Shown: positions 34,695 to 50,447 of the stretch, one piece after another
Numbering within the stretch: position 1 is the stretch's first letter
How the letters are laid out: each line of letters opens with the position of its first letter
NCBI GenBank assembly: GCA_040006915.1
Contig: JBDTWD010000001.1
Location: 34,229-98,228, forward strand
Reading direction: 5' to 3'
Origin: Candidatus Woesebacteria bacterium
GTDB lineage: Bacteria > Patescibacteriota > Microgenomatia > UBA1400 > UBA12028
Length of the DNA stretch: 64,000 bases
The notes under the pieces: generated by a model
What the model saw: only the letters and a program-made list of their open reading frames with translations
Told to the model about the DNA's origin: nothing
The model's database searches: none
Translations under genes and position numbers: made by a program

Positions 34695-37600
34695 TCACTC
34701 GCGATTTGCAAGATCATCTCCCTCAAGAATTCGAAGGGCTTTTCGTAAACGAGTATCGACTTGCTCTGTACTCATGTTTAGGTACTCTGCGACACGTTCA
34801 ATTTGATACACACCGAACGTATATCCAAATCCAAAAAAGAGAGAAACAACTTCCTGCGTGTGGGCATCGAATTGATGTTTGTTTTGCTCAAACAAAGAAC
34901 TAATGTGCTGCGGATTCAGACGGGGGAAGTATCGAAGGCGGTCGATAAGATTCTCATTTGTATCTGCTTCTTTCATCGGAAGAATATTCCATAGTTTGAT
35001 ACGCGCTTCATATAAATGGCTGACAACCTCGAGTTCGGTAATTCCAAGTTCATGAGCAATCATTTCATTTGTTAATTGGATATAGAGGTTTCGATATGCG
35101 ACTCGAGCAGTCATTCTGTTTAATGTAAAGATTGCTTCGACCAATGGCTCAGTTAATTGTTCATTTCGTCGATTTTCAAAATGAATCTTGTCATCATCTT
35201 TTCCATTTCTTAAGGCGTCGAGTTGTTCGTAAATGGGAGTCAGGGCAAATCTGATTTTATTAAGCGCTTTCTCTTCTACCTGTCTAATTCGTTCGCGGGA
35301 TACTTCATATTCTTCACCAATTTCTTCAAGCGTTTTTGTGTCATCATTCATGATGTGTTCGTTAAGGATGGTTTGTTCACGTTCAGTCAGATATTTTGTC
35401 AAAATTGGTGTAATTTGTTCATGAAGAAGTCGTTCATCGTATGACTCTGTTACTTCATGTTCGACACTGCGAAGCAGTGAAGGAACAAAATTATAAAGAC
35501 TTTCACCATCATCGTCCTCAAGTACGGAAGCGTCTAAAGATTGGATCGGGGCAGAACTGACAAGCATAGATTCTATTTCTTTGGCAGTGATTCCAACAAA
35601 TTGTTTGGGATAGCGCTTGAGCAGTTCCTCTGTTAATGCTTCAAAGCTTGGAGTCTCTCCAGTTTCTTGTAGAATTTGTGTCTGGACTTTCCGGATATTT
35701 GGCAACTTTTCAGACATATGAACTGGAATACGAATTGTTCTCCCTGTGTCGTGAACAGATCTTTGCATATACTGCCGAATCCAGAAGACTGCATAGGTTG
35801 AGAATTTCAATCCTCGTTCATGATCGTACAACTCGGCTGCACGTAGAAGTCCAAGATTTCCTTCTTGAATTAAGTCGAGAGAAGTAGTTCCGTGTCCGAC
35901 GTATCTACTTACATATTTAAGAACCAGTCGGTAATTTGAATTGACGAGTTTTTGATATGCCTCTTCACCAGCTGCAACAGTAGAAGCTAAGTGGCTCATT
36001 TCCGGAGGAATCTGCTCACCATAGGAAGAAAGAAGCGCGAGAGCCTCTGATCCTTCTTTCATTGTTTGTCCCAGATCGAGCTCATCTTCAAAAGTAAGAA
36101 GTGGGAATTGATGTACTTCATCTTCATATGCTTTCACAATAGAAATTGTGCTTTCGGAAAAATCGCTATCGTCGACGTCTCCATCTTCTGAAGTTCGTTG
36201 TTCAGCTCGTTTACGTGCTGCAAAATTTGCCTTGTTCATCCATACGGAGAGTTCTTGGTTATATCTCTCTTCAGCGTCTTCCTCTTCTGCACTGGCCATA
36301 CCGTACGATGATTCGATAAAATCAATATCATCTTCCCAGGGACGTTTTTTCTTTTTTGTATATTCGGAGGGCAGAGATTGTAATAATGTCGCTTGTGTCA
36401 GCGAGAAACGTAGAGGTTGATCACTTGTATCCTGTATGATCTCTTTGTAGAAGTCGGGTGGTTCAACAAAGTAGAGTCCATCAATAATACGATCAGAAGT
36501 TGAGAGCTCATTGTACATACGTGTGACAATGCGTTCGTCATAGGTTCCACGTGCGCGGTTAAGGATGTCTCCTGTGACAAACGGAACGTAAATCGTCACG
36601 TCTCGTGTTTGCCCATACCGATGGATACGGTCAACTGCTTGTATATATTTTGATACCGTGTTGGGAGAAACAAATAAGATAACTTCCGTCGCATTGTTCT
36701 CAGGAGAGCATAAGGTGATTGACTCCCCTGCGGTTTGATAGTTTCCAATGATAACGTCCAAACTCTTCTCATCTGAGAATGGGAGTTTAAATCGATCCTG
36801 CTTTACGGTTCGATCACTTGGGTCCACTGTGCCATCAAGAAGCCCTATACGAGAAATTCCTTGATCTTTAAGGAAATGGGCAATGTGTGACGTACTCATC
36901 ATTGAGGTATAGCGATCTTCCCCGTGAACAAAAGGAGTAAAGATGACTACCTTCTTCTTGGCTTGTACCAGATCTTTGACTGTATCGGTCAGCCAGGTAT
37001 ATTTTACTTGGTTTTCAAGGGCGAGCGTCGCGTAAAAGTATGCAAATGGATTATCCTTACAGCGTTCTCGCAGTGATGCTTCAATACGTAAAAATTCCTC
37101 TTGATCTGCTTCACTTAAACTTGAGAGAGACAAGGGAATATATCGTGTATGCTTTTCGGGAAGATTTGAAACCTCTTTTTTACGACGACGCAACATAATC
37201 CCACGTAAGGCAGCATGGGCCTCTTCTTCGCTATGAAGGAGCTGTTCGATTGCATCTTTGGTAAAGATATGAGGAGCCGCTAAGTGAGCCAAAATGAGTG
37301 GTTCTTTGGCAGACTTTACATACGGCGTTGCTGTTGCGAGCATGACACGCATTTCTGGATGCTCGCTGATAAAACGGTATAATCCCTTGGTTCGTTGTGC
37401 GGTTATAGATGTATTTTCTGGATCAGCGGTCGATTCAGTTAAAGTAAGATCTTTGGTACGAATATTATGTGCTTCATCAATAATACAAACATCAAATGGA
37501 TGTTTGGAGAGGATGCGCTGCTGAAAAAGAGAATTACGAAATACATCATAATTCACCAGAAGGATGCGTTTACTCTTTCCCTCTCGTTCGAGTGCTTTTT

Positions 37601-39131
37601 TTAAAGCAAAAAGGCGTTCAGTCAAGCTTGCATTTGAGTCAAGTTTTAAATACGGACGACTTGGAACAGGCGGAGCATTTACGTTAATTGACTCGACTCG
37701 ACTAAGATCAATCCACTGTTTTATTTGTTCTTCCCACACATTGAGTGGTGTCTTTCCGGCCACGACAAGAATTGTTCCTGCTGCATTTTTAGTTGTGGCT
37801 TGTTGTTCGATCCTATTAAGAGCTGCTAAAAGCAACATGAGTGTTTTTCCAGTTCCCGGCTCGTCCGCTAAAATTCCGGTTTCCTGCATGAGTTTGGCAA
37901 TTCCTTCGACTTGATGCAGAAGAACATGAGGGAGTAGGTCTTCGTCATCAGAGTTTTTGGGTGAAAAATAATCAATGTGCTGATACGCATCGGCGATTGT
38001 AAAAAAGTATGACCGCATGCGTGGAAGCAGTCGTTCTTCAATTACATGTATAAGCGCGGTTTTTCCCTCGGGAATTCGTTGTGTAATATACTCATGCAAA
38101 AATCGATCCATTGCCTCACCTGCATGTTCACGACTGCCACCTTTTTCAAAATATGTACTCCAAAAGATACTGGCACTTTTATATGTACAACTGATTGCAA
38201 TGGGAAGAAGGATATGCTCTTCCATTGCATCGATAAGATCCAAAACTTCTGTACTTGTTGCACTTTCTTTATACCAGGTAATAAATGTCAGCTGATCTCG
38301 AAAGATTTTTTCCAAAGTAAGATCTTCACTGGATGTCAGGATTTCTGGATTAAATAGTGTGAAGAGATGATCTTGAATATACGAAGGATTTTGTCCCTGC
38401 AATCCTAGCTTTTGGAGGAGAAAGAGAGAGAGCTGCAAGATGACAGCCTTCTGACGATCTCTGGGGACCAGCGGGAGATATTGAAGAAGCGCGTGGACCG
38501 GTTTTGCTTCTTCTTTTTCCAGATACAAAAGGAGTTCTTCTCGGGATCGTTCGTCGTCGATATTGGCAAACTGAGCAAAGTTTTTTGGAAATCGTTTGAG
38601 TAGTCGCGTTTGTACCTCCGATGGTGCACGTTCATACAGAAGTCGATCAACTGCAGTAAATATATCATCAAAACTAATACTTGGATTCTGTTGTCGCTTC
38701 TCATAGTAGACGACAGAAGTAAGTTGTCCATACCAATCTGAATATTTTCCGGTTCGGTTTGCAGTTTTCGTCTGTGGGTCGGCAAATGTAAAAAACTTAT
38801 GAATCTCTTTTGGATTGGGAGTATATTGCAGACTAATATCAGCTGACAATTGCGACCAAAAGGAAGCATCATTCAGTACTTCTCGTGGATCACCTGTGTT
38901 TGTCAGTACCTCAGATTGTAGTTGTGAAGCGAGATGATATGTCCGTAGTGCCTCAATTGCCTGAGAGATTTTGCTTCCATATCGCGTCATGAGATCGCGA
39001 AGCAGGCCATGATCCCGAAACCACTGATAACTGAGCTCCTCGGGGCTTGGAATATGTTCTGAGGATGTCAATCCAAGTGCATCCGAGAAACGTTGTTCAA
39101 ACGACAGAGGCGATGTTTCACTATTTGTCAT
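34695..39131 (-). CDS. SNF2-family (RapA/Rad54-like) helicase ATPase fused to a complete sigma-70 factor (regions 1.2, 2, 3, 4) plus two further region-4-like HTHs. 1478 aa.
   Basis: Helicase motif I [15 protein letters not shown], motif II DEAH box [11 protein letters not shown], motif [17 protein letters not shown]. Sigma region 2 [40 protein letters not shown] and region 3 [16 protein letters not shown]. Region 4 [27 protein letters not shown]. Extra HTHs [28 protein letters not shown] and [20 protein letters not shown]. Confidence 0.8.
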   Translation of the reverse strand: [1478 protein letters not shown]

Positions 39132-42565: not shown

Positions 42566-45475
42566 TTAGAATTTTTTTACGATGACGTCTGTAAATCGAT
42601 TGAGCATTTTTGAGAAATCAGTTATATGAATTTTTCCTTTATACGTTTTTAAGAGAGACTCTTGAATTACTTGCTTGATTATCTTTATGAATTCCTCTCG
42701 TTTTGAAGAGTCTTGCCAGTTTTTATCTAACAGTGAAGATAGTTGCTGAGTCAGACTTTTGGAGATAAAAAGTAACTCATCATCATCAGGGTTCAAACTA
42801 TATTCTTGCAAAAGTCGATACATTCCCATTTCTTGCAGAGTAAGCCCTAGATGTTTCGCTTCTTCGCTCTTGCTTTTCAAATCATTGAGCAAGTCAAAGT
42901 ATCTCTTAATCCGCTCTGAGAGGTCTATTTGTTGCTTTTCAAATTCATCACGGATAGAGAGTAATCGTAGACTAAATTTTTCGAATGACGGATCCGAATC
43001 AATTTGCATTTGAATCTCGTGTTTGATTATTTTCTCTAGTTGCAGTGCTTTTTCCTCTTCATCATCACTGTGAAGCCTATTGAGAACGTAGATATCATTG
43101 ACCGTTAATTCTTTAAAATTGCGGGTAATCCCTTCGTAATCAATTTCTTCCTGAATGATTTTTTTTACCTTCTCCCCATACTCGGCGAGCATTGCGTGAT
43201 TATCATCTTCATCTTGATATGTTTTCTTGAATGCCAAATAAAAACTCGTAATCCATTCAAATTGACGTAGGTATGTGGAGAGGAATGGATCTGGAGACAA
43301 TATTTCGAATAGTAATTTTAATTTTCCGTATTTTTCAACAAAATAGTTCTGTTTTCGCTCATTTTCAGTAAAAATTTTGAGTGCACGACGTAAGTTATCC
43401 ATTGAAGGATCTTCAATATTGATGCCAGTAAACAGTTCCATGATTTCACTTAGAATTTGGATAAACTGTTCTTTAAGTTGATTGATATTGATGAGCGCTG
43501 AGTCGACAATGCTCTCATCAAAATCGAGCGCATCATAGAGGTTTTTTGTAATTCCGTAATAGTCGATAATTTTGCCTGCACCCTTATTTGGATACACGCG
43601 ATTAGTGCGTGCGATTGCTTGGAGTAGATTATGATCTCGTAGTGGCTTATCTAGATACATGACCTGCTCGATCGGTGCATCAAATCCAGTCAGTAACATA
43701 TCACACACCAATAAAAATTGAAGAGGATTCTTTGGATCTTTAAATCGAGTGATGAGTTGTTCTCGCTCTTGCTTGTTTGTGTTGTAGACTTTTAAATCAT
43801 CGGATTCATCATTTGGATCTCCTGGAGAATATATGACTGCAGAGAATTCAGGAGATATCAGTCGATCAAAAATTACTTTATACTTTGCAGTCGCTTCTCG
43901 ATCAAAACAAACAACTTGTGCCTTGAATCCATTCGGAGCGACATACAGTTTAAAGTGTTCGATAATATCCTGTGCGACAGACTCCATACGTTTCGTCAGT
44001 TTTACTAAAGCGGCTTTTTTTCCAAATTTCTTTGAAAGCGCTTCTTTTTGACTATCGGTGAGATCAGTTGTCATCTCGTCAAATTGCTGATCGACTTTCT
44101 CTTCATTAATTGAAAATTTAGAAAGTCTGGCTTCATATGTGACAGGAAGTGTTGCTCCATCATCGATGGCCTCTTGGATTGAATAATAATCTAAGTAACG
44201 TTCGCCATCTTCCCCAAAGTTTCGGTGTGTATTGAGCGTGAGTTTATCGATTGGGGTTCCAGTGAACCCAAATAAAAATGCCTTGTGTAATGATGTTCGT
44301 AAATTGATTGCACTGATTCCTTCGTTATCTCGATGTGCCTCGTCTGAGAGGACGATAATATTCTCATTTGTATTTTCGACATTTGGTCCGAGCTCACTGA
44401 ATTTCTGGATCGTTGAGATAAAGATTCCTCGCTCCGAATTTTGAATCTTCTCTTCTAGATCTTTGCGAGATGTGACCCGTGTCACATTCTCGCCACCACA
44501 ATTCATGAAGGTATCAAATATTTGATCATCCAGGTCGATTCGATCAACAAGGATAAAAACTTTGGGATTGTGAAGCAAAGTATCAAATCGAAGTTTCCAT
44601 GCAGTGAAAAACATAGTCAAACTTTTCCCCGATCCTTGCGTGTGCCAAACGAGTCCGCGCTTTTTCTCTCCCTGTTTCACTCGCTCGATAATTTTATTTG
44701 TTGCTCGGAATTGCTGATACCTGGCGATCTTTTTTATTCGACCATCAGTCGTTTTTTCAAACACTATAAAATTAGAGATAATATCCAGTAGAGTCTCTTT
44801 GGTAAGGAGGGCTGCTATCGACATTTCTACATTTCCACCATGAAGAGTTTCTAGATCCTCGTCTTTCCATTGCAAGAAATGCTGGAGTGGTGAGTACGTC
44901 GCACCATACACTGTTTGAATACCGTCTGTTGCTATACTGAAGCAGTTTGGCCAAAAGAGCCGATGCGCATTCTTCTCGTAGCGTTTGAGCTGTCCGACGG
45001 CCTTGGAGTAGTCCACGAGAGTACTTGCAGTCGGACTTTTTGCTTCGATATCGATAAGAGGGATTCCATTGACGAAGATCATGATATCCGGACGGATATT
45101 TTCTAAATTACCTTCAAAGTAAAACTGATTCGTGACTACAAATTGATTGTTCTCTGGATTCCGCAAATCAATAACTTTGTAGTCTCTCATCTTGCCACTC
45201 ACGGGATCTTTTAGATTAACGCCAGATCTATAGAGTCTCAGGAAGTCTTCGTTTGAGTCGATCTTCTTCACCTCTCGGAGTACACTTTGTGCCTCATCTT
45301 CAGAGATTTCATTGATTCGTTGTATTGCTACTAGGAGATGGGAAGAGATCAGAAATTCATTCTCAAACTCTCGAAGCTTGGAAAAAATTTCAGGCCTGAT
45401 GTACTCATATCCAAGTGTGGCTGATATGAATTTAATGATGTGATTCTCGACGGTGTATTGTTCGTTAAATTTCAT
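42566..45475 (-). CDS. hsdR: Type I restriction enzyme R subunit (HsdR).
   Basis: N-terminal nuclease region, helicase motif I TQGSGKSLTM and DEAH box LSDEAHR. The 969-aa size is typical of HsdR. Confidence 0.9.
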   Translation of the reverse strand: MKFNEQYTVENHIIKFISATLGYEYIRPEIFSKLREFENEFLISSHLLVAIQRINEISEDEAQSVLREVKKIDSNEDFLRLYRSGVNLKDPVSGKMRDYKVIDLRNPENNQFVVTNQFYFEGNLENIRPDIMIFVNGIPLIDIEAKSPTASTLVDYSKAVGQLKRYEKNAHRLFWPNCFSIATDGIQTVYGATYSPLQHFLQWKDEDLETLHGGNVEMSIAALLTKETLLDIISNFIVFEKTTDGRIKKIARYQQFRATNKIIERVKQGEKKRGLVWHTQGSGKSLTMFFTAWKLRFDTLLHNPKVFILVDRIDLDDQIFDTFMNCGGENVTRVTSRKDLEEKIQNSERGIFISTIQKFSELGPNVENTNENIIVLSDEAHRDNEGISAINLRTSLHKAFLFGFTGTPIDKLTLNTHRNFGEDGERYLDYYSIQEAIDDGATLPVTYEARLSKFSINEEKVDQQFDEMTTDLTDSQKEALSKKFGKKAALVKLTKRMESVAQDIIEHFKLYVAPNGFKAQVVCFDREATAKYKVIFDRLISPEFSAVIYSPGDPNDESDDLKVYNTNKQEREQLITRFKDPKNPLQFLLVCDMLLTGFDAPIEQVMYLDKPLRDHNLLQAIARTNRVYPNKGAGKIIDYYGITKNLYDALDFDESIVDSALININQLKEQFIQILSEIMELFTGINIEDPSMDNLRRALKIFTENERKQNYFVEKYGKLKLLFEILSPDPFLSTYLRQFEWITSFYLAFKKTYQDEDDNHAMLAEYGEKVKKIIQEEIDYEGITRNFKELTVNDIYVLNRLHSDDEEEKALQLEKIIKHEIQMQIDSDPSFEKFSLRLLSIRDEFEKQQIDLSERIKRYFDLLNDLKSKSEEAKHLGLTLQEMGMYRLLQEYSLNPDDDELLFISKSLTQQLSSLLDKNWQDSSKREEFIKIIKQVIQESLLKTYKGKIHITDFSKMLNRFTDVIVKKF

Positions 45476-45477
45476 AA

Positions 45478-46557
45478 TTATGCAAAGAATCTTTCCATCC
45501 CTCCCTCGATCATAAAATTAGTATATCCCTGGTTTGGAAAATACATATCTGTGATTTTTATTTGATCCACAACTCTAAATCTTTTAACATAATCCTGCGC
45601 TGATAATCCACCATTCGATACGATAGTAAGCTTTACATTGTCATGTAGATGCTCCTTCAACAAAGATAGTAAGTACTCGTCTTGCGCTCTCCAACCTATG
45701 ACGAGAATTCGATCAGTTTCCTTTATTTGTTCAATCAAACTATCGATATGTGATTTAGGACAAATAAAATTCCCTTTTGTTCCGATAGGTATTGCGATTG
45801 CTGGTAAATAGTACAGCCATTGTCCTTCACGAAAACCATTTTCTTTGTGCTCACGATAGGCTTCGTTTAAGCTAAAAGAATCAATTGCCCTGTAGTTGAA
45901 TCTTTTGATTACAATGGGAAAAACTTCGCGCTCTCTGTAGTCATCACTTCGAATCTCTGTATCAGACATGAAATATTCATAGACATCTCTTTTTAGTGAG
46001 TCGATTTTTGGAATATACCTCCAATTATGGGCGCCATGAATCTTAATAACTTTTATGGGTCCTGAAATATAGTCATCAATGTTGTTTCCTAAATTTATAT
46101 TGCTAATATTTTTCTCGAATAGAGTGTCATAGTTGAAATTCACGACACATGCATTTCCACCGCGGTTGTTTATTTCATTAATCAGATGAAGATGATTGTT
46201 TGTATGTCTGAAATGATAAAAAGATACTTTATTTAGAAGTTCAGCTAAATAAAACCTTAAAGCCATTACTTGAGTTCTCGTGTTGTCTGGATAGTCTTGT
46301 TGAATCTGTGATAAATATTTTTCAAAATCGAAACTATTCTTTTGGTTTTTTACCAGATTATTGATTGTGGCAGCTAGTGGTTTGACATGTTCATAATTCC
46401 CTATTATTCTGCCAAATTTAGCCACATCAAATAGTTGATTTGTAAGAGGAGGTTGCCAGTCTTTCAACTCAAAAATGTCGTTATGACCTTCGTAGTCGGC
46501 GAGATTTTGAAAGTCATGTGAAGCGCCAGCACCAAGAATGATGAGTGGATGTGCCAT
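45478..46557 (-). CDS. SIR2-like (SIR2_2 family) NAD-binding/NADase domain protein, embedded between hsdS and hsdR.
   Basis: The N-terminal IILGAGAS glycine motif, VVNFNYDTLFE (SIR2_2 NYD motif) and IKIHGAHNW (catalytic His) match defence-associated SIR2 domains. Start and stop are coupled with hsdS and hsdR (1 to 2 nt). Confidence 0.7.
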   Translation of the reverse strand: MAHPLIILGAGASHDFQNLADYEGHNDIFELKDWQPPLTNQLFDVAKFGRIIGNYEHVKPLAATINNLVKNQKNSFDFEKYLSQIQQDYPDNTRTQVMALRFYLAELLNKVSFYHFRHTNNHLHLINEINNRGGNACVVNFNYDTLFEKNISNINLGNNIDDYISGPIKVIKIHGAHNWRYIPKIDSLKRDVYEYFMSDTEIRSDDYREREVFPIVIKRFNYRAIDSFSLNEAYREHKENGFREGQWLYYLPAIAIPIGTKGNFICPKSHIDSLIEQIKETDRILVIGWRAQDEYLLSLLKEHLHDNVKLTIVSNGGLSAQDYVKRFRVVDQIKITDMYFPNQGYTNFMIEGGMERFFA

Positions 46558-46558
46558 A

Positions 46559-47734
46559 TTAATTTATTTGGATTTTTTGACTAAAAATATCAGACATTAG
46601 TTTTTTTTTCAGTTGATTTAAATAGTTCTTTGCATCAATTTCAGTTTTAATTTTTTCTGATAAATAGTGGATACTGGTGACTATTTTTTTTTGTGTCCCG
46701 AGACTTTTTGGAATACGTATTTCAAAAGTGCGAATTTTTTCCATGGATAGACTCGATTGAGCTGTAGTACTAATGTTTTTTTTTATTTCATAATCAATCA
46801 GTGGGCTCATAAAGTATGTAAACAGATATTCTGGTAAAACTTTGTTTAAGCAGGATATTTTACAAACATTTGGACCCAAGTGAAACTTATTATTCTCTTC
46901 AATCAGTGCAACCGGACCGATAGTGCCAACGTATGAAAAAATCAAATCACCTTTAATCAATTGAGACCTTGGGAGTGCGTGAGAAACATTCAGAGGTATA
47001 GTTTTTGTATCGTTCAAATCTAGCGAGCCTTTCTTTATGTTTTTACCTCTCAATACTGTTATCTCTCCTTTGTCTCTATAGCTATTAAAATATTTTGTGA
47101 ATTCGTACCCAGCTAGTTTTGTTATATTAGCGACGTCTCCCAATCTTACTAACTCCCATTGCTCCGTGAGCTCTACTCCCTTCTCTCTTGTGCCATTCAA
47201 ATTTTCCGGTAATAGCACCTTCATTATTCCTTTTTTTAAGATCTCTGTTTTTTGAGTGATTTGATCGTTTTTTTCAATTTCTTCATCAACAGTTGATAAT
47301 ATTTTAGAAATTTTCTTTTGAATGATCTTAGGAGGTAGCGTGGCGACAATTTCATATACATCTTCTCTATTTAGGCCTGGAATTCCAGTTCCCCTATTCA
47401 TTTTTTCTAACCCAAGTGTTTGAAGTAAGTAATAAGTCCATCGAAGATCTACGCCTTCATGATCGATAACATAATAGGTTGTATCTATTGGCCAAAAAGG
47501 TGAATCAGAAAATTCAATTTTCCCTATGCTTCCTTTTCTACCAACAACTAAACCTTTGGAGTTGATAAGCGCTATGTCATTATGTCCAACGATGCCGTTT
47601 GACCCATAGACAGGGATGTTTCCTTTCTTCCTTTTGTGTGTAGGAAGATTCTTCCCATACTCTAGTTTCAAAAATTCCCCAGTCTTAACTTTTTTCCAGG
47701 GTAGACTTGTATTTGGCATATTATTTCTTCTCAT
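46559..47734 (-). CDS. hsdS: Type I restriction-modification specificity subunit (HsdS).
   Basis: Two-TRD architecture with conserved central and C-terminal helical repeats, ~390 aa, located inside the hsd operon. Confidence 0.75.
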   Translation of the reverse strand: MRRNNMPNTSLPWKKVKTGEFLKLEYGKNLPTHKRKKGNIPVYGSNGIVGHNDIALINSKGLVVGRKGSIGKIEFSDSPFWPIDTTYYVIDHEGVDLRWTYYLLQTLGLEKMNRGTGIPGLNREDVYEIVATLPPKIIQKKISKILSTVDEEIEKNDQITQKTEILKKGIMKVLLPENLNGTREKGVELTEQWELVRLGDVANITKLAGYEFTKYFNSYRDKGEITVLRGKNIKKGSLDLNDTKTIPLNVSHALPRSQLIKGDLIFSYVGTIGPVALIEENNKFHLGPNVCKISCLNKVLPEYLFTYFMSPLIDYEIKKNISTTAQSSLSMEKIRTFEIRIPKSLGTQKKIVTSIHYLSEKIKTEIDAKNYLNQLKKKLMSDIFSQKIQIN

Positions 47735-47905
47735 TTACGACCATATTGAGCTAGTGCTCGCAATGGTTTTTGGTTGATTTATTAGATTTCCTTTAATTTA
47801 GCTTCGCACTCTAGACTCAATTGTTCGATCATATCGGTGACTTCACCGATATGATATTTTGCCTATCTGTCGGTCCTTTTACTCGAGACGGAGAGTTGTG
47901 CAGGG

Positions 47906-47933
47906 TTGACAATAGGCAGTTTCAAGCTATAAT
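47906..47933 (+). promoter_or_regulatory. Perfect-consensus sigma-70 promoter (TTGACA, 16-nt spacer, TATAAT) on the plus strand, antisense to the hsd operon.
   Basis: TTGACA at 47906-47911, TATAAT at 47928-47933. Confidence 0.5.
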
Positions 47934-47940
47934 TAAATCT

Positions 47941-47993
47941 GATCGGAAACGATCAAATTCGTTGGCTTAAGGGCTCCTCGCGGAGTCCTTTTT
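47941..47993 (+). ncRNA. Putative ~50-nt small RNA, antisense to the NYN-hsdS intergenic mRNA. It has a GNRA hairpin (GATCG-GAAA-CGATC) and a terminator hairpin (GGGCTCC-tcgc-GGAGTCC) followed by TTTTT.
   Basis: Bounded by the consensus promoter (TSS ~47941) and an intrinsic terminator at 47971-47993. It ends 6 nt before the NYN gene stop codon on the opposite strand. Confidence 0.3.
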
Positions 47994-47998
47994 GCTAT

Positions 47999-48751
47999 CT
48001 ATAGCTGTTTGCTAATATCTGGCTGAATCTCCTTTGCGTTGCAGATGAAATTCCGAATTTTTTGAATATCAAAGATCTGCGCTTTTGTTGCTCCCAGCTC
48101 AATTGAGATCCGACGGGCCGTGGCAAAAATGACAACTTTCTTTTTATCTTTTAGTAACTGGGAGACGGGATCGGCGAAATCACTATCTCCTGACCAAAGG
48201 ATAAAGTTATCTGTACCTCCAGCATCATAGTCATGGAGCATATCTCTACCGAGCTCGACATCAAAATTACATTTTCGATGCTCAATGTATGTGATACCTG
48301 AAAGGTTTAAATCCTTAAGCTTATCGTTAAGAAATTCTATGGTTTCAAGGGTGAAACGTCGAAGAAGCGGTTTTTTGATGAAGTTTGCCAAGATAGCGGG
48401 TGAATTATTTGGTATACCAGAAACATCTATGGGTAGACGCATGATCTTTACAGCTTTTGTTGTAACTGCATAGTTCATTTTAGTCAAATCGTTTATGAAA
48501 TGAATAGAATCAGGGTTAGTTTCTAATGTTCCCTGATACAGTCGAACAACTGAAATTGCTGAGAATGAGTCACAGAATTGTTTTAACCTTTTCGGGTCAA
48601 TGTGCCAACTGAGTTTTTCAGACCAATGCAACATATTCGCCCAGTCTAAATATATGTTCGTTGGTTTATCAAAAATTTTCTCAAGTTCTTTTATACGATC
48701 TGGATAAATTTGTGCTAGCTTTTTAAGTCGTTCTGTTTTTGCTTTAAACAT
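47999..48751 (-). CDS. NYN-domain (LabA/PIN-like) predicted ribonuclease, embedded between hsdM and hsdS.
   Basis: IYLDWANM near the N-terminus and FILWSGDSDFADP match NYN/PF01936 conserved Asp motifs. The start overlaps the hsdM stop by 8 nt. Confidence 0.65.
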   Translation of the reverse strand: MFKAKTERLKKLAQIYPDRIKELEKIFDKPTNIYLDWANMLHWSEKLSWHIDPKRLKQFCDSFSAISVVRLYQGTLETNPDSIHFINDLTKMNYAVTTKAVKIMRLPIDVSGIPNNSPAILANFIKKPLLRRFTLETIEFLNDKLKDLNLSGITYIEHRKCNFDVELGRDMLHDYDAGGTDNFILWSGDSDFADPVSQLLKDKKKVVIFATARRISIELGATKAQIFDIQKIRNFICNAKEIQPDISKQL

Positions 48752-50447
48752 ATCCCAACTCCTTTATAAAGCTAGCTACTTTGGCATGAATTTGTTCGCG
48801 TTGTGTTTCCAGCTCTTGGAGCTCTTTCCACACTGCAGATACATCAATTTCCTCTACCTCATCGGTCGAATCAATGTAGCGTTTTATATTGAGGTTATAC
48901 TCATTCTCGGCGATTTCTTTCACCTCGATGACACGTGCGTATTTCTCTACATCTTGATAGGCGTCATACGCACTGACAATCTTCTCGATATCTTGATTGC
49001 GGAGTGTGTTCTGATTTTTCCCTTCCGCAAAATCGCGCTCCGCATCGATCATGAGAATTTTGTTTTTCTTGTGATCAGGTTTATTTTTATTTAATATCCA
49101 GACAGCCACAGGGATTCCGGTTCCAAAGAAGAGCTTCGGTGGGAGAGATACGATTGTATCGATGAGGTCATTTCTTATGATTTGTTCGCGAATCCGTCCT
49201 TCACTGCCGCCACGGAATAGCACTCCATGAGGAAGGATTATTCCAGCCCGACCATTCATATTCATGGATTTGATGATGTGGAGCACAAAGGCAAAGTCGG
49301 CATTCTTTTGTGGAGGAAGCTCATATTCACTTGTCCTGCCATACTTATCATTGCGAAAGATCTCAAATTCCCAATCTTTAATCGAGTAAGGGGGATTTGC
49401 AACACAAATATCCCATGTTTGTAAGTTTCCTGAGTCGGTCAAGAACTGAGGATTTGCTAATGTGTCACCACGACGAATATCAGCACTATCGAGGCCATGC
49501 AAAAACATATTTATCTTTGCGATGGCAAAAGTACTGATATTAATTTCTTGTCCATAGAGATAGAGAGTTCGGGCGATCTGTTCTCCTGCTTTTTTTTTCA
49601 GATAAGCATATGCTTCGAGCAGAAACCCACCTGATCCCACCGTCGGATCATAGATGTGATCCTTCTGATGAGGCTTAAGGATTCCAATGATTGCTCTTTC
49701 TACCTCTCGAGGCGAATAAAATTCGCCGCCTTTTTTTCCTGCATCTGCTGCAAATTGACTAATGAGATACTCATATGCATCTCCAAGCAAATCTGAGCTG
49801 ATATATGCACTCCCGAAGTTGTACTGCGAGAAATGATTGATCAGTCGCTGTAGTGTTTCATTTGGAAAACGATCTTTATTTGCAAAGTCGAGATCGGCAA
49901 ATATTTTATCGAGTTTGGGACTATTGACGTTTGTCAGCTTATCGAAGATTTCATTGAGTTTCCCCCCAATATCTGAGGGAGTGTTTTCTAGTGTCGTCCA
50001 CTTACAGTCGGCAGGGACCTGGAATCTGTGATTATAGTCAGCACGAGCAAGGTCTTTATCATGATACTCGTTGAGTACTACATCATATTCTTCATCCCAG
50101 ACATCGCTAATTCGTTTGTAAAAAAGAAGACCGAAGATATATTTTTTGTAGTCACTGCTATCAATTTTCCCTCGCAGAATGTCTGCACTTTTCCATAGCA
50201 TCTGTTTAAGCTCGGACAAGGTCATGGTGTGCGCACTGATCTGTGATAACAATCCACCAACGTCCGAATCAATCATTTTGGCGATTTCCTTCTGACGATA
50301 ACGACGATCCTGTCTGGGTCCAACTCGGAGTGGTACCAGTGTTCCATTTCTCTCCCAGTTACGTAGGGTGTCAGCATGAATACCAAAAAGTTTGGCTACT
50401 TGTCCGATACTTAGAAGTGCTTTTTCTCTAGTTGCTTGTTCTGACAT
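48744..50447 (-). CDS. hsdM: Type I restriction-modification N6-adenine DNA methyltransferase subunit (HsdM), with an N-terminal HTH-like extension.
   Basis: NPPY motif VANPPYSIKDW. AdoMet motif I DPTVGSGGFL. HsdM N-terminal domain. Confidence 0.9.
   Translation of the reverse strand: MSEQATREKALLSIGQVAKLFGIHADTLRNWERNGTLVPLRVGPRQDRRYRQKEIAKMIDSDVGGLLSQISAHTMTLSELKQMLWKSADILRGKIDSSDYKKYIFGLLFYKRISDVWDEEYDVVLNEYHDKDLARADYNHRFQVPADCKWTTLENTPSDIGGKLNEIFDKLTNVNSPKLDKIFADLDFANKDRFPNETLQRLINHFSQYNFGSAYISSDLLGDAYEYLISQFAADAGKKGGEFYSPREVERAIIGILKPHQKDHIYDPTVGSGGFLLEAYAYLKKKAGEQIARTLYLYGQEINISTFAIAKINMFLHGLDSADIRRGDTLANPQFLTDSGNLQTWDICVANPPYSIKDWEFEIFRNDKYGRTSEYELPPQKNADFAFVLHIIKSMNMNGRAGIILPHGVLFRGGSEGRIREQIIRNDLIDTIVSLPPKLFFGTGIPVAVWILNKNKPDHKKNKILMIDAERDFAEGKNQNTLRNQDIEKIVSAYDAYQDVEKYARVIEVKEIAENEYNLNIKRYIDSTDEVEEIDVSAVWKELQELETQREQIHAKVASFIKELGYV

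Follow-up and report, generated by a model that had tools for sequence, protein, structure and literature searches.

A type I restriction–modification operon of a Candidatus Woesebacteria bacterium with a SIR2-like gene directly upstream of hsdR and an NYN gene facing a predicted convergent small RNA

Anatomy of the Operon and Its Restriction–Modification Subunits

We analyzed a 64,000-nt stretch of DNA from the genome of a Candidatus Woesebacteria bacterium, a member of the candidate phyla radiation (CPR), in which a type I restriction–modification (R-M) operon harbors two additional genes, one for a SIR2-like protein and one for a LabA-like NYN protein that is predicted to be an RNase. All coordinates are those of the whole stretch, which we term the window. 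The operon consists of five open reading frames (ORFs), all on the minus strand and tightly packed. It begins with hsdM (48744–50447), which encodes a type I methyltransferase subunit of 567 aa with an extra N-terminal MerR-type helix-turn-helix (HTH; residues 11 to 60). The NYN gene (47999–48751; 250 aa) overlaps hsdM by 8 nt, its ATG falling within the hsdM stop region (GGATATGTTTAA), and is separated by a 264-nt gap (47735–47998) from hsdS (46559–47734), whose 391-aa product has two target-recognition domains. The SIR2-like gene (45478–46557), encoding a standalone protein of 359 aa, follows 1 nt after hsdS, and hsdR (42566–45475), encoding the 969-aa restriction/translocase subunit, follows 2 nt after the SIR2-like gene. 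These ORF coordinates reproduce exactly the gene order, overlap and gap lengths reported in a first-pass annotation of the same DNA. The gap that it recorded between NYN and hsdS has the length given but is not empty, as its opposite strand carries a conserved gene for a predicted small RNA (sRNA). The promoter of this gene lies on the plus strand, antisense to the operon (47906–47933; TTGACA, 16 nt, TATAAT), and the candidate sRNA of ~59 nt (47940–47998, plus strand, with its start placed from the −10 box) converges with NYN.

The R-M system itself is intact, with HsdM, HsdS and HsdR all full length and scoring far above curated cutoffs. HsdM matches the Pfam families N6_Mtase (358.6 bits) and HsdM_N (87.2 bits) as well as MerR_1, MerR and HTH_17, and it matches TIGR00497 with 280 bits against a cutoff of 242.75. 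HsdS matches Pfam Methylase_S in two stretches (116 bits) and the PADLOC model Specificity_I over residues 13 to 390 (E = 3e-60). HsdR matches TIGR00348 with 545.8 bits and contains the Pfam domains HSDR_N, SWI2_SNF2, T1R_D3-like and T1RH-like_C. The PD...ExK nuclease triad of HsdR is intact, with D130, E144 and K146 invariant, which rules out that the SIR2-like protein substitutes for a dead HsdR nuclease.

The SIR2-like Protein Is a Divergent Member of the SIR2_2 Superfamily

The family of the SIR2-like protein numbers at least 168 unannotated members of ~350 aa, and its motifs and domains were counted on 41 homologs. The GAGAS, NYD and catalytic-histidine motifs singled out in the first-pass annotation are indeed present (GAGAS at residues 9 to 13, NFNYD at 140 to 144 and IHGA at 173 to 176) and are invariant or nearly so: the GAGAS stretch (G9 to S13) is conserved in at least 90% of the homologs, and N142, Y143, D144, H174 and G175 are invariant. 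A variable region spans residues ~181 to 249. An AlphaFold model of the protein, confident with a predicted local distance difference test (pLDDT) score of 90.8, contains the SIR2 Rossmann fold, and its best structural neighbors are defense SIR2s. A PDB sequence search with the single window protein returned no match. When a profile of the family was used, NYD and HG lined up with the same motifs in the SIR2 protein of SIR2-HerA (PsSIR2, 8w9l) with an E value of 0.0027, a marginal similarity. Against Pfam SIR2_2 (PF13289), the window protein scores 16.5 bits, under the gathering threshold of 24.5 bits, and it likewise falls under threshold in a hidden Markov model (HMM) search with the PADLOC SIR2 models (of PADLOC, its HMMs only were used throughout). 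Its relatives fare better, with 26 of the 41 homologs matching PF13289 at E ≤ 1e-3 (best, 1.4e-8) and 25 matching PADLOC SIR2 models. The Aga_SIR2 models are matched by 21 of the 41, via the shared SIR2 domain only, AbiH by 2 and PDC-S25 by 3. We therefore assigned the protein from its fold and its relatives rather than from its own Pfam score: it is a divergent, single-domain member of the defense-type SIR2_2 superfamily. The earlier label of a SIR2_2-type NADase thus stands as regards the superfamily but not at the Pfam cutoff. The protein is predicted to be a NAD+-consuming enzyme, either an NADase or possibly an ADP-ribosyltransferase.

That the protein might be a true sirtuin deacetylase (CobB/Sir2) with a zinc ribbon, a case that the first-pass annotation had allowed for, is ruled out by the absence of a Cys4 zinc ribbon and by the identity of its closest structures. 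It has only two cysteines, C136 and C266, and C266 and H270 are the only Cys or His residues of that region to be invariant. No HerA, prokaryotic Argonaute (pAgo)/APAZ, SLOG, TIR or STAND domain and no large C-terminal sensor was found in the 359-aa protein. The domain annotation of the window also confirms the earlier remark that the locus lacks a TIR, HerA or Argonaute partner: there is no HerA among the annotated window genes, and the neighbors of the SIR2-like gene are hsdS and hsdR. The protein therefore differs from Thoeris ThsA in having neither a C-terminal SLOG domain nor a ThsB TIR partner, and from DSR1/DSR2, SPARSA and Avs5 in having no large sensor, no pAgo with APAZ and no STAND NTPase. 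Unlike SIR2-HerA (Nezha), it has no adjacent HerA, and the candidate partner would be HsdR or a type IIG/ISP enzyme. AbiH (PF14253), a Lactococcus single-gene abortive infection protein, and PDC-S25 are similar in being standalone proteins of ~350 aa that are matched by the few relatives mentioned, but the window protein matches neither, and the relation is weak and indirect.

The SIR2-like Gene Has a Fixed Position Upstream of hsdR

Neighborhoods of the SIR2-like gene were compared across 80 genomic loci of its relatives, with metagenomic contigs added for close relatives. Of 79 SIR2 loci, 10 have an R-M gene as a direct neighbor, compared with an expectation of 1.9% (9 R-M-like genes among 928 background genes of the same loci; p = 3e-6). 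All-against-all clustering of the neighbors yielded no universal partner gene for the family; only R-M components recur. In each of the eight hsdR-linked operons (the window, L002, L005, L007, L009, L025, L164 and L165), the SIR2-like gene lies immediately upstream of hsdR. These operons represent about three type I lineages, between which HsdR identity drops to 31 to 35%, and the two genes overlap by up to 38 nt or are separated by up to ~10 nt, most junctions being within 3 nt. Between the window and the sister operons L164 and L165, SIR2 and hsdR form one colinear block of DNA with 65 to 67% identity. Among relatives of at least ~50% identity, 7 of ~10 adjoin R-M genes. The genes in the window, L002, L005, L164 and L165/L166 lie upstream of hsdR, the closest homolog (L001, 64% identical) lies 21 nt downstream of the gene for a type IIG enzyme, and that in L004 also adjoins a type IIG enzyme. 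More distant members are found upstream of hsdR in L007, L009 and L025 and upstream of hsdS in two Bacteroidota loci, and others overlap the gene for a type ISP-like methyltransferase (L019) or neighbor such an enzyme (L012).

A comparison of L002 (634–1653) with L007 (732–1712) revealed an exchange at this position. The 3′ end of hsdS and the hsdR DNA are 91 to 98% identical between these contigs, which come from one study, while no DNA similarity was detected between the two SIR2 bodies, whose proteins are 39% identical. The breakpoints fall ~36 nt inside the SIR2 gene and ~12 nt short of its stop codon. The resident gene has thus given way, in the same slot, to a divergent allele of its own family, a pattern that typifies genes evolving under diversifying, arms-race selection.

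These data bear on one alternative, pure co-location, according to which the SIR2-like and NYN genes would be autonomous, selfish defense or addiction genes in permissive, translationally coupled slots, where all they would gain is co-expression and co-transfer, with no interplay between their function and restriction. For SIR2, this alternative is countered by its constant place right before hsdR (8 of 8 operons from about three lineages), by the ~70% of close relatives that touch an R-M enzyme, and by the L002/L007 replacement, which drew on the same SIR2 family and not on unrelated cargo.

Two further observations concern individual SIR2 loci. The contigs L002, L005 and L007 are labeled as Gammaproteobacteria metagenome-assembled genomes; their hsdR is 67 to 71% identical to that of the Woesebacteria and their layout, hsdS-SIR2-hsdR, is the same, which reflects either horizontal transfer of the operon between CPR and Proteobacteria or mis-binning. 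In L167 and L168 (4820–7071), a 53%-identical SIR2-like gene lies 92 nt downstream of a CAP12-PCTIR_TIR gene. A GIY-YIG gene is nearby in both loci, and L167 alone has a serine recombinase gene upstream; this arrangement is reminiscent of another kind of SIR2/TIR combination, borne on a mobile island.

The NYN Protein and Its Genomic Contexts

The NYN protein is of the LabA/MARF1 type with a PIN-like NYN fold, and it scores above threshold for Pfam NYN (PF01936). Its catalytic Asp motifs (D36/N39, D164, D170, D174 and SGDSD at residues 187 to 191) are invariant in 26 homologs. Both the fold and this invariance uphold the first description of the protein as one with LabA/PIN-like Asp motifs, and the protein is predicted to be an RNase. 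Its matches to HEC-09 and to the LabA-like NYN.COG1432 group (2qip) are partial and fall within residues 153 to 238; that to the PADLOC model HEC-09 is marginal (E = 4.9e-5, 21 bits, residues 153 to 230). Unlike the window protein, HEC-09 has an N-terminal HTH-like region of its own and no reported RNA partner.

Neighborhoods of NYN were compared across 80 metagenomic loci of its family, and 15 of 78 have an R-M gene as a neighbor, again compared with 1.9% expected (p = 3e-11). hsd genes accompany NYN in three of the 80 loci only. The NYN gene directly follows hsdM in the window, L083 and L089, and in L128 it directly follows a fragment of an N6-type methyltransferase gene of unconfirmed class. 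The NYN proteins are 59 to 64% identical between operons whose HsdM proteins are only ~30% identical. A separate, type III-like arrangement was observed among loci L111 to L160 (for example, L114, L133, L138, L150 and L153), in which Mod (N6_N4_Mtase, ~740 aa), a KTSC protein, NYN with its antisense sRNA, and Res (a helicase of ~900 aa) follow one another. The KTSC protein, of 70 aa, ends ~5 nt before NYN and is present in 19 loci, and Res is found in 7 of the 10 KTSC-linked NYN loci with enough flank. The NYN proteins here form a subfamily at 45 to 53% identity.

A Predicted Small RNA Convergent with NYN

Downstream of NYN, ~70 nt past the stop codon are conserved at the DNA level in otherwise unrelated loci. 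In the window, the gap contains a plus-strand promoter that matches the sigma-70 consensus at 12 of 12 positions, on the assumption that CPR promoters follow that consensus, and a terminator-like hairpin after it. A promoter is found at the equivalent, fixed distance in 75 NYN loci, with a median match of 10/12 compared with 7/12 for shuffled sequences. In the predicted sRNA, a conserved linker joins a 5′ hairpin, capped by a GAAA loop, to a GC-rich 3′ hairpin with an invariant G·U pair, and the U-tail ends at the NYN stop codon. RNAalifold analysis of a MAFFT alignment, read antisense to NYN, recovered the 3′ hairpin, with compensatory changes at 7 of 11 pairs. The G·U pair is invariant in 47 of 47 sequences and would be an A·C mismatch on the NYN-sense strand, which fixes the plus strand as that of the RNA. 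A functional RNA on the NYN-sense strand is ruled out also because that strand folds less well, because GNRA loops occur only in the antisense orientation, and because the T-tail and promoter lie on the plus strand. Indeed, the minimum free energy of the plus strand is −25.6 kcal/mol (z = −4.9), compared with −16.9 for the opposite strand.

A covariance model that includes both hairpins has a sole match in the window, at 47926–47999 on the plus strand (53.7 bits, E = 3.7e-9). It has one match each in 76 of 80 NYN loci, all antisense to NYN and abutting its stop codon, ~30 of which lay outside the seed alignment, and zero matches in 1.3 Mb of the SIR2 loci, which served as a control. In the model-based alignment, 97.5% of cells pair and compensatory changes are seen in 13 of 16 pairs, a value reached in 0 of 500 shuffles, while sliding the partners lowers pairing to 41 to 55%; this alignment is fitted to the model, whereas the 3′ hairpin result comes from the independent MAFFT alignment. 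At the level of comparative sequence analysis, these data establish the existence, strand, structure and promoter of the sRNA. Searches of Rfam 15 with the window region and with the sRNA of 13 other loci gave no match at E ≤ 1, which counts against a known RNA, and a literature search found no description of an NYN-sRNA module. The possibility that the gap is a decayed gene was also rejected, as no remnant of the L083 or L089 cargo genes was found in it.

The most direct mode of control, in which the sRNA would block the NYN start codon in trans, is unsupported: the sRNA shows no conserved complementarity to the region where translation of NYN begins, the median z being 0.15 and values under −2 being confined to 2 of 69 loci. 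Any control of NYN would then proceed via pairing with a read-through 3′ untranslated region or via binding to the protein, and the structure and invariant bases of the sRNA suggest recognition by a protein. As a side observation, a DnaA-box-like motif (TTATCCACA, at most one mismatch) is present in 24 of 76 NYN loci (for example, L114, L133, L140 and L141) compared with 0 of 76 shuffled controls, at a fixed place next to the −35 box of the sRNA promoter, ~23 to 28 nt beyond the −10 box; it does not occur in the window.

The location of this promoter also raises a regulatory alternative. R-M systems need restriction to be delayed, and a promoter with a 12/12 match that opposes the operon between hsdM/NYN and hsdS might regulate or insulate it from within, reducing read-through from hsdM into hsdS-SIR2-hsdR and delaying restriction relative to methylation. 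The SIR2-like protein would in that case modify HsdR, HsdM or DNA by ADP-ribosylation or deacylation, for example in restriction alleviation. The MerR-type HTH of HsdM and a perfect palindrome in the gap would fit such a scheme. The sRNA, however, goes with NYN in every context and is absent from sister operons that lack NYN, so its primary partner is NYN and not the operon. Moreover, very divergent SIR2 alleles have been swapped beside nearly identical HsdR proteins, which is difficult to square with a specific enzyme–substrate pair and typical of arms-race effectors. We consider the regulatory alternative very unlikely.

The Subunit Junctions Are Cargo Slots, and SIR2 and NYN Are Independent

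No NYN gene was found in the 80 SIR2 loci and no SIR2-like gene in the 80 NYN loci, nor do the two co-occur in L161 to L168. Co-occurrence in 0 of about 165 related loci rules out a conserved two-gene system, and the SIR2 and NYN pairing put forward in the first-pass annotation dissolves outside the window. That annotation had named unrelated insertion as the contrary case, and this is what we found for NYN relative to SIR2, since the sister operons have SIR2 and no NYN. In L164 and L165, whose HsdM proteins are 74 to 77% identical to that of the window and have the same MerR HTH, SIR2 is present and the NYN site contains either no gene or an unrelated one; no sRNA was found in these operons without NYN. 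The unrelated gene, in L165 (3317–3790), encodes a 157-aa protein of unknown function and starts at the identical ATG in the hsdM stop region (GGATATGnnTAA), and the same operon has an SduA_C (Shedu nuclease) gene before SIR2. Other cargo consists of a 3keto-disac_hyd-family protein and a 207-aa unknown protein in L164 (4588–6004), SoFic with three unknown proteins in L009 (5982–9918), and an IS1595 transposase with a DUF3800 protein in L089 (8633–11903). That the same slots hold such varied cargo indicates that the junctions are precise cargo slots and that NYN and SIR2 are independent cargos. On comparative grounds, the NYN gene and its sRNA form a self-contained mobile cassette, located mostly outside R-M loci. 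Phage-borne genes were ruled out as an explanation, searches of 2.9 million viral contigs having given only 2 and 1 (distant) matches.

The occupancy of the slots by many unrelated cargos, a transposase included, favors pure co-location, as do the majority of family members that lie outside R-M loci, a dip in GC content to 0.33 to 0.38 over 45.5 to 48 kb compared with 0.42 to 0.45 in the flanks, and the precedent of embedded cargos such as TgvAB that function alone. Weighed against the constant SIR2–hsdR junction described above, we regard co-location as possible overall, well short of an even chance; it is very plausible for NYN with its sRNA and less so for SIR2.

A third alternative takes its precedent from PrrC and RloC, anticodon nucleases that are embedded in type I R-M loci and guarded by the R-M complex. 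Here, the SIR2-like and NYN proteins would be latent effectors held by HsdMSR, in the style of PrrC-EcoprrI, and released by a phage anti-restriction factor. The resemblance lies in a potential latent, cell-damaging effector encoded within an hsd operon, and the translational coupling of SIR2 to hsdR in eight loci and of NYN to hsdM in the window, L083 and L089, together with the enrichment of both families at R-M genes, is what such guarding would lead one to see. However, neither protein has the ABC-ATPase/NTPase regulatory domain or the anticodon-nuclease domain of PrrC/RloC, and NYN has an RNA partner. This regulator-like sRNA, present in the window and in 76 of 80 loci, and the mostly non-R-M location of NYN imply that NYN needs no Hsd proteins for its silencing, and 59 to 64% identity of NYN across HsdM proteins of ~30% identity is the pattern of a mobile cassette rather than of a co-evolving partner. 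SIR2 relatives, for their part, also lie beside type IIG/ISP enzymes or a TIR gene, or alone. Joint guarding of both proteins thus seems unlikely; by analogy, PrrC-like guarding stays a plausible submodel for the SIR2-like protein only.

An Intact R-M System with Two Proposed Second-Layer Modules

The reading that we favor, with a probability of roughly 0.55, is that of an intact type I R-M system housing two mutually independent second-layer modules, in which the SIR2-like protein is used with the restriction enzyme and NYN with its sRNA is toxin/RNA-antitoxin-like. The two junctions between subunits would act as cargo slots, each with one accessory defense module. In the slot between hsdS and hsdR, the SIR2 enzyme, translationally coupled to hsdR, would serve as a second-layer, abortive-infection-type effector that consumes NAD+ alongside the restriction enzyme. 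HsdR, or the type IIG/ISP enzyme in relatives, might be physically coupled to it as the DNA-sensing partner, the role of HerA or pAgo elsewhere. The fixed, coupled position, the other large R-M neighbors and the in-slot allele exchange argue that SIR2 is used together with the restriction enzyme. Its trigger may be the engagement of restriction or, as with PrrC, the inhibition of restriction; either fits. The slot between hsdM and hsdS would contain a mobile, two-part cassette of a LabA-like NYN RNase and a convergent sRNA that is equipped with a sigma-70 promoter and an intrinsic terminator. NYN would be restrained by the sRNA, which would either bind the protein or pair with the 3′ end of a read-through NYN mRNA, and it would be freed once sRNA synthesis fails, for example when a phage shuts off host transcription. 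This cassette probably inserts into permissive slots, often in R-M operons, and would not be under Hsd control.

Several observations weigh against this reading. The SIR2 gene is not beside R-M genes in 65 of 79 loci, and among the 22 NYN loci with at least three genes on each side, an R-M gene lies within three genes in only 4, leaving 18 without one. With most SIR2 and NYN members outside R-M loci, an R-M partner cannot be a requirement for either protein to work. Some close relatives of SIR2 neighbor a TIR-domain gene (L167/L168) or lie amid housekeeping genes (P0004), and the window SIR2-like protein itself is below the Pfam and PADLOC thresholds given above. With respect to the sRNA, the start region of NYN shows no conserved complementarity to it, and an overlap with the NYN mRNA would depend on read-through. 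HEC-09, an Hma-embedded NYN/MARF1-like candidate and the only R-M-embedded NYN candidate to have been assayed, gave no protection against the phages tried (10.1101/2024.01.29.577857).

The comparison with toxin–antitoxin (TA) systems is likewise mixed. In the B. subtilis type I TA pairs txpA/RatA and bsrG/SR4, convergent antisense RNAs overlap the 3′ end of the toxin gene. The NYN locus shares this layout, with a nuclease gene and a convergent, strongly promoted sRNA gene whose terminator abuts the stop codon; against the comparison, NYN is a soluble predicted RNase of 250 aa and not a small (<60 aa) hydrophobic toxin. An enzyme toxin paired with an sRNA has a precedent in RalR and RalA (PMC4041452). 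The type III system ToxIN also differs in ways that count against the favored reading, as the RNA here is single-copy, on the opposite strand and without tandem repeats, and NYN does not have the ToxN/AbiQ fold.

Embedding as such is a known concept, which the present analysis extends without overturning current views. RloF is a gene embedded in a type I R-M system of C. jejuni. Payne et al. 2024 (10.1101/2024.01.29.577857) described "guilt-by-embedding" for accessory defense genes in type I R-M, BREX, DISARM and Hma loci, TgvAB is nested in the type I R-M locus of V. cholerae VPI-2 (PMC11411939), PIN-like toxins are linked with R-M systems (PMC5499597), and in S. thermophilus SIR2/HerA pairs are inserted between or downstream of R/M systems (PMC11514479). 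The present locus is similar to those of the embedding survey in that defense genes are nested between hsd genes in slots that vary among related operons. It differs in that neither the SIR2-like family nor NYN with its sRNA is a named system, in that the PADLOC scores are subthreshold or marginal, and in that the host is a CPR bacterium. New here are a SIR2 family with a conserved place before hsdR and cassette exchange, the NYN-sRNA module and its RNA family, and the Mod-KTSC-NYN-Res arrangement.

CPR/Patescibacteria, with their tiny genomes, for the most part have no CRISPR and depend heavily on R-M, and to our knowledge their accessory immunity is almost uncharted. The SIR2 family is unannotated and invisible at standard Pfam/PADLOC cutoffs, and its position at hsdR suggests a link between restriction and NAD+ depletion. 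We know of no biochemical function for the LabA-like (COG1432) NYN group in bacteria, and the NYN-sRNA pair offers a handle on it. Treating the junctions in R-M operons of types I and III as translationally coupled slots also sharpens the search for defense genes by embedding. A broader, tentative proposal, which we likewise hold to be possible but well short of an even chance, would combine a small SIR2 family that employs an R-M translocase/nuclease as its sensor with a CPR-wide NYN TA system whose antitoxin is an sRNA of ~60 nt recognized by shape, through the invariant G·U pair and a GNRA loop. Were it correct, restriction would be hard-wired to NAD+ depletion, giving a NAD-based counterpart of PrrC and a SIR2 partner class beside HerA, pAgo and TIR, and a new class of RNA antitoxin would be hitchhiking in type I and type III R-M operons.

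Additional Features of the Window

The perfect palindrome between the sRNA gene and hsdS (47828–47855, no strand) has 13-nt arms, ATCATATCGGTGA and TCACCGATATGAT, with a 2-nt spacer. It is unique in the operon region and lies outside the conserved NYN cassette: similarity to other NYN loci ends at about 47928, with none beyond, palindrome included. It may serve as an operator, perhaps one bound by the MerR-type HTH of HsdM, or form a hairpin; a second copy upstream of hsdM, considered in connection with the operator role, was not found. The MerR/HTH_17 domain on HsdM (residues 11 to 60, encoded at 50268–50417 in the window) is shared with L164 and L165, with HTH_11 instead in L089, and an N-terminal HTH on HsdM suggests autoregulation by the methyltransferase subunit. 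The genes flanking the operon, VanZ and RDD, are ordinary. Elsewhere in the window, a 1478-aa ORF on the minus strand (34695–39131) encodes an SNF2-related helicase (residues ~416 to 840) fused to a complete sigma-70 factor with regions 1.2, 2, 3 and 4 (residues 999 to 1294), an unusual architecture that is reminiscent of RapA joined to RpoD.

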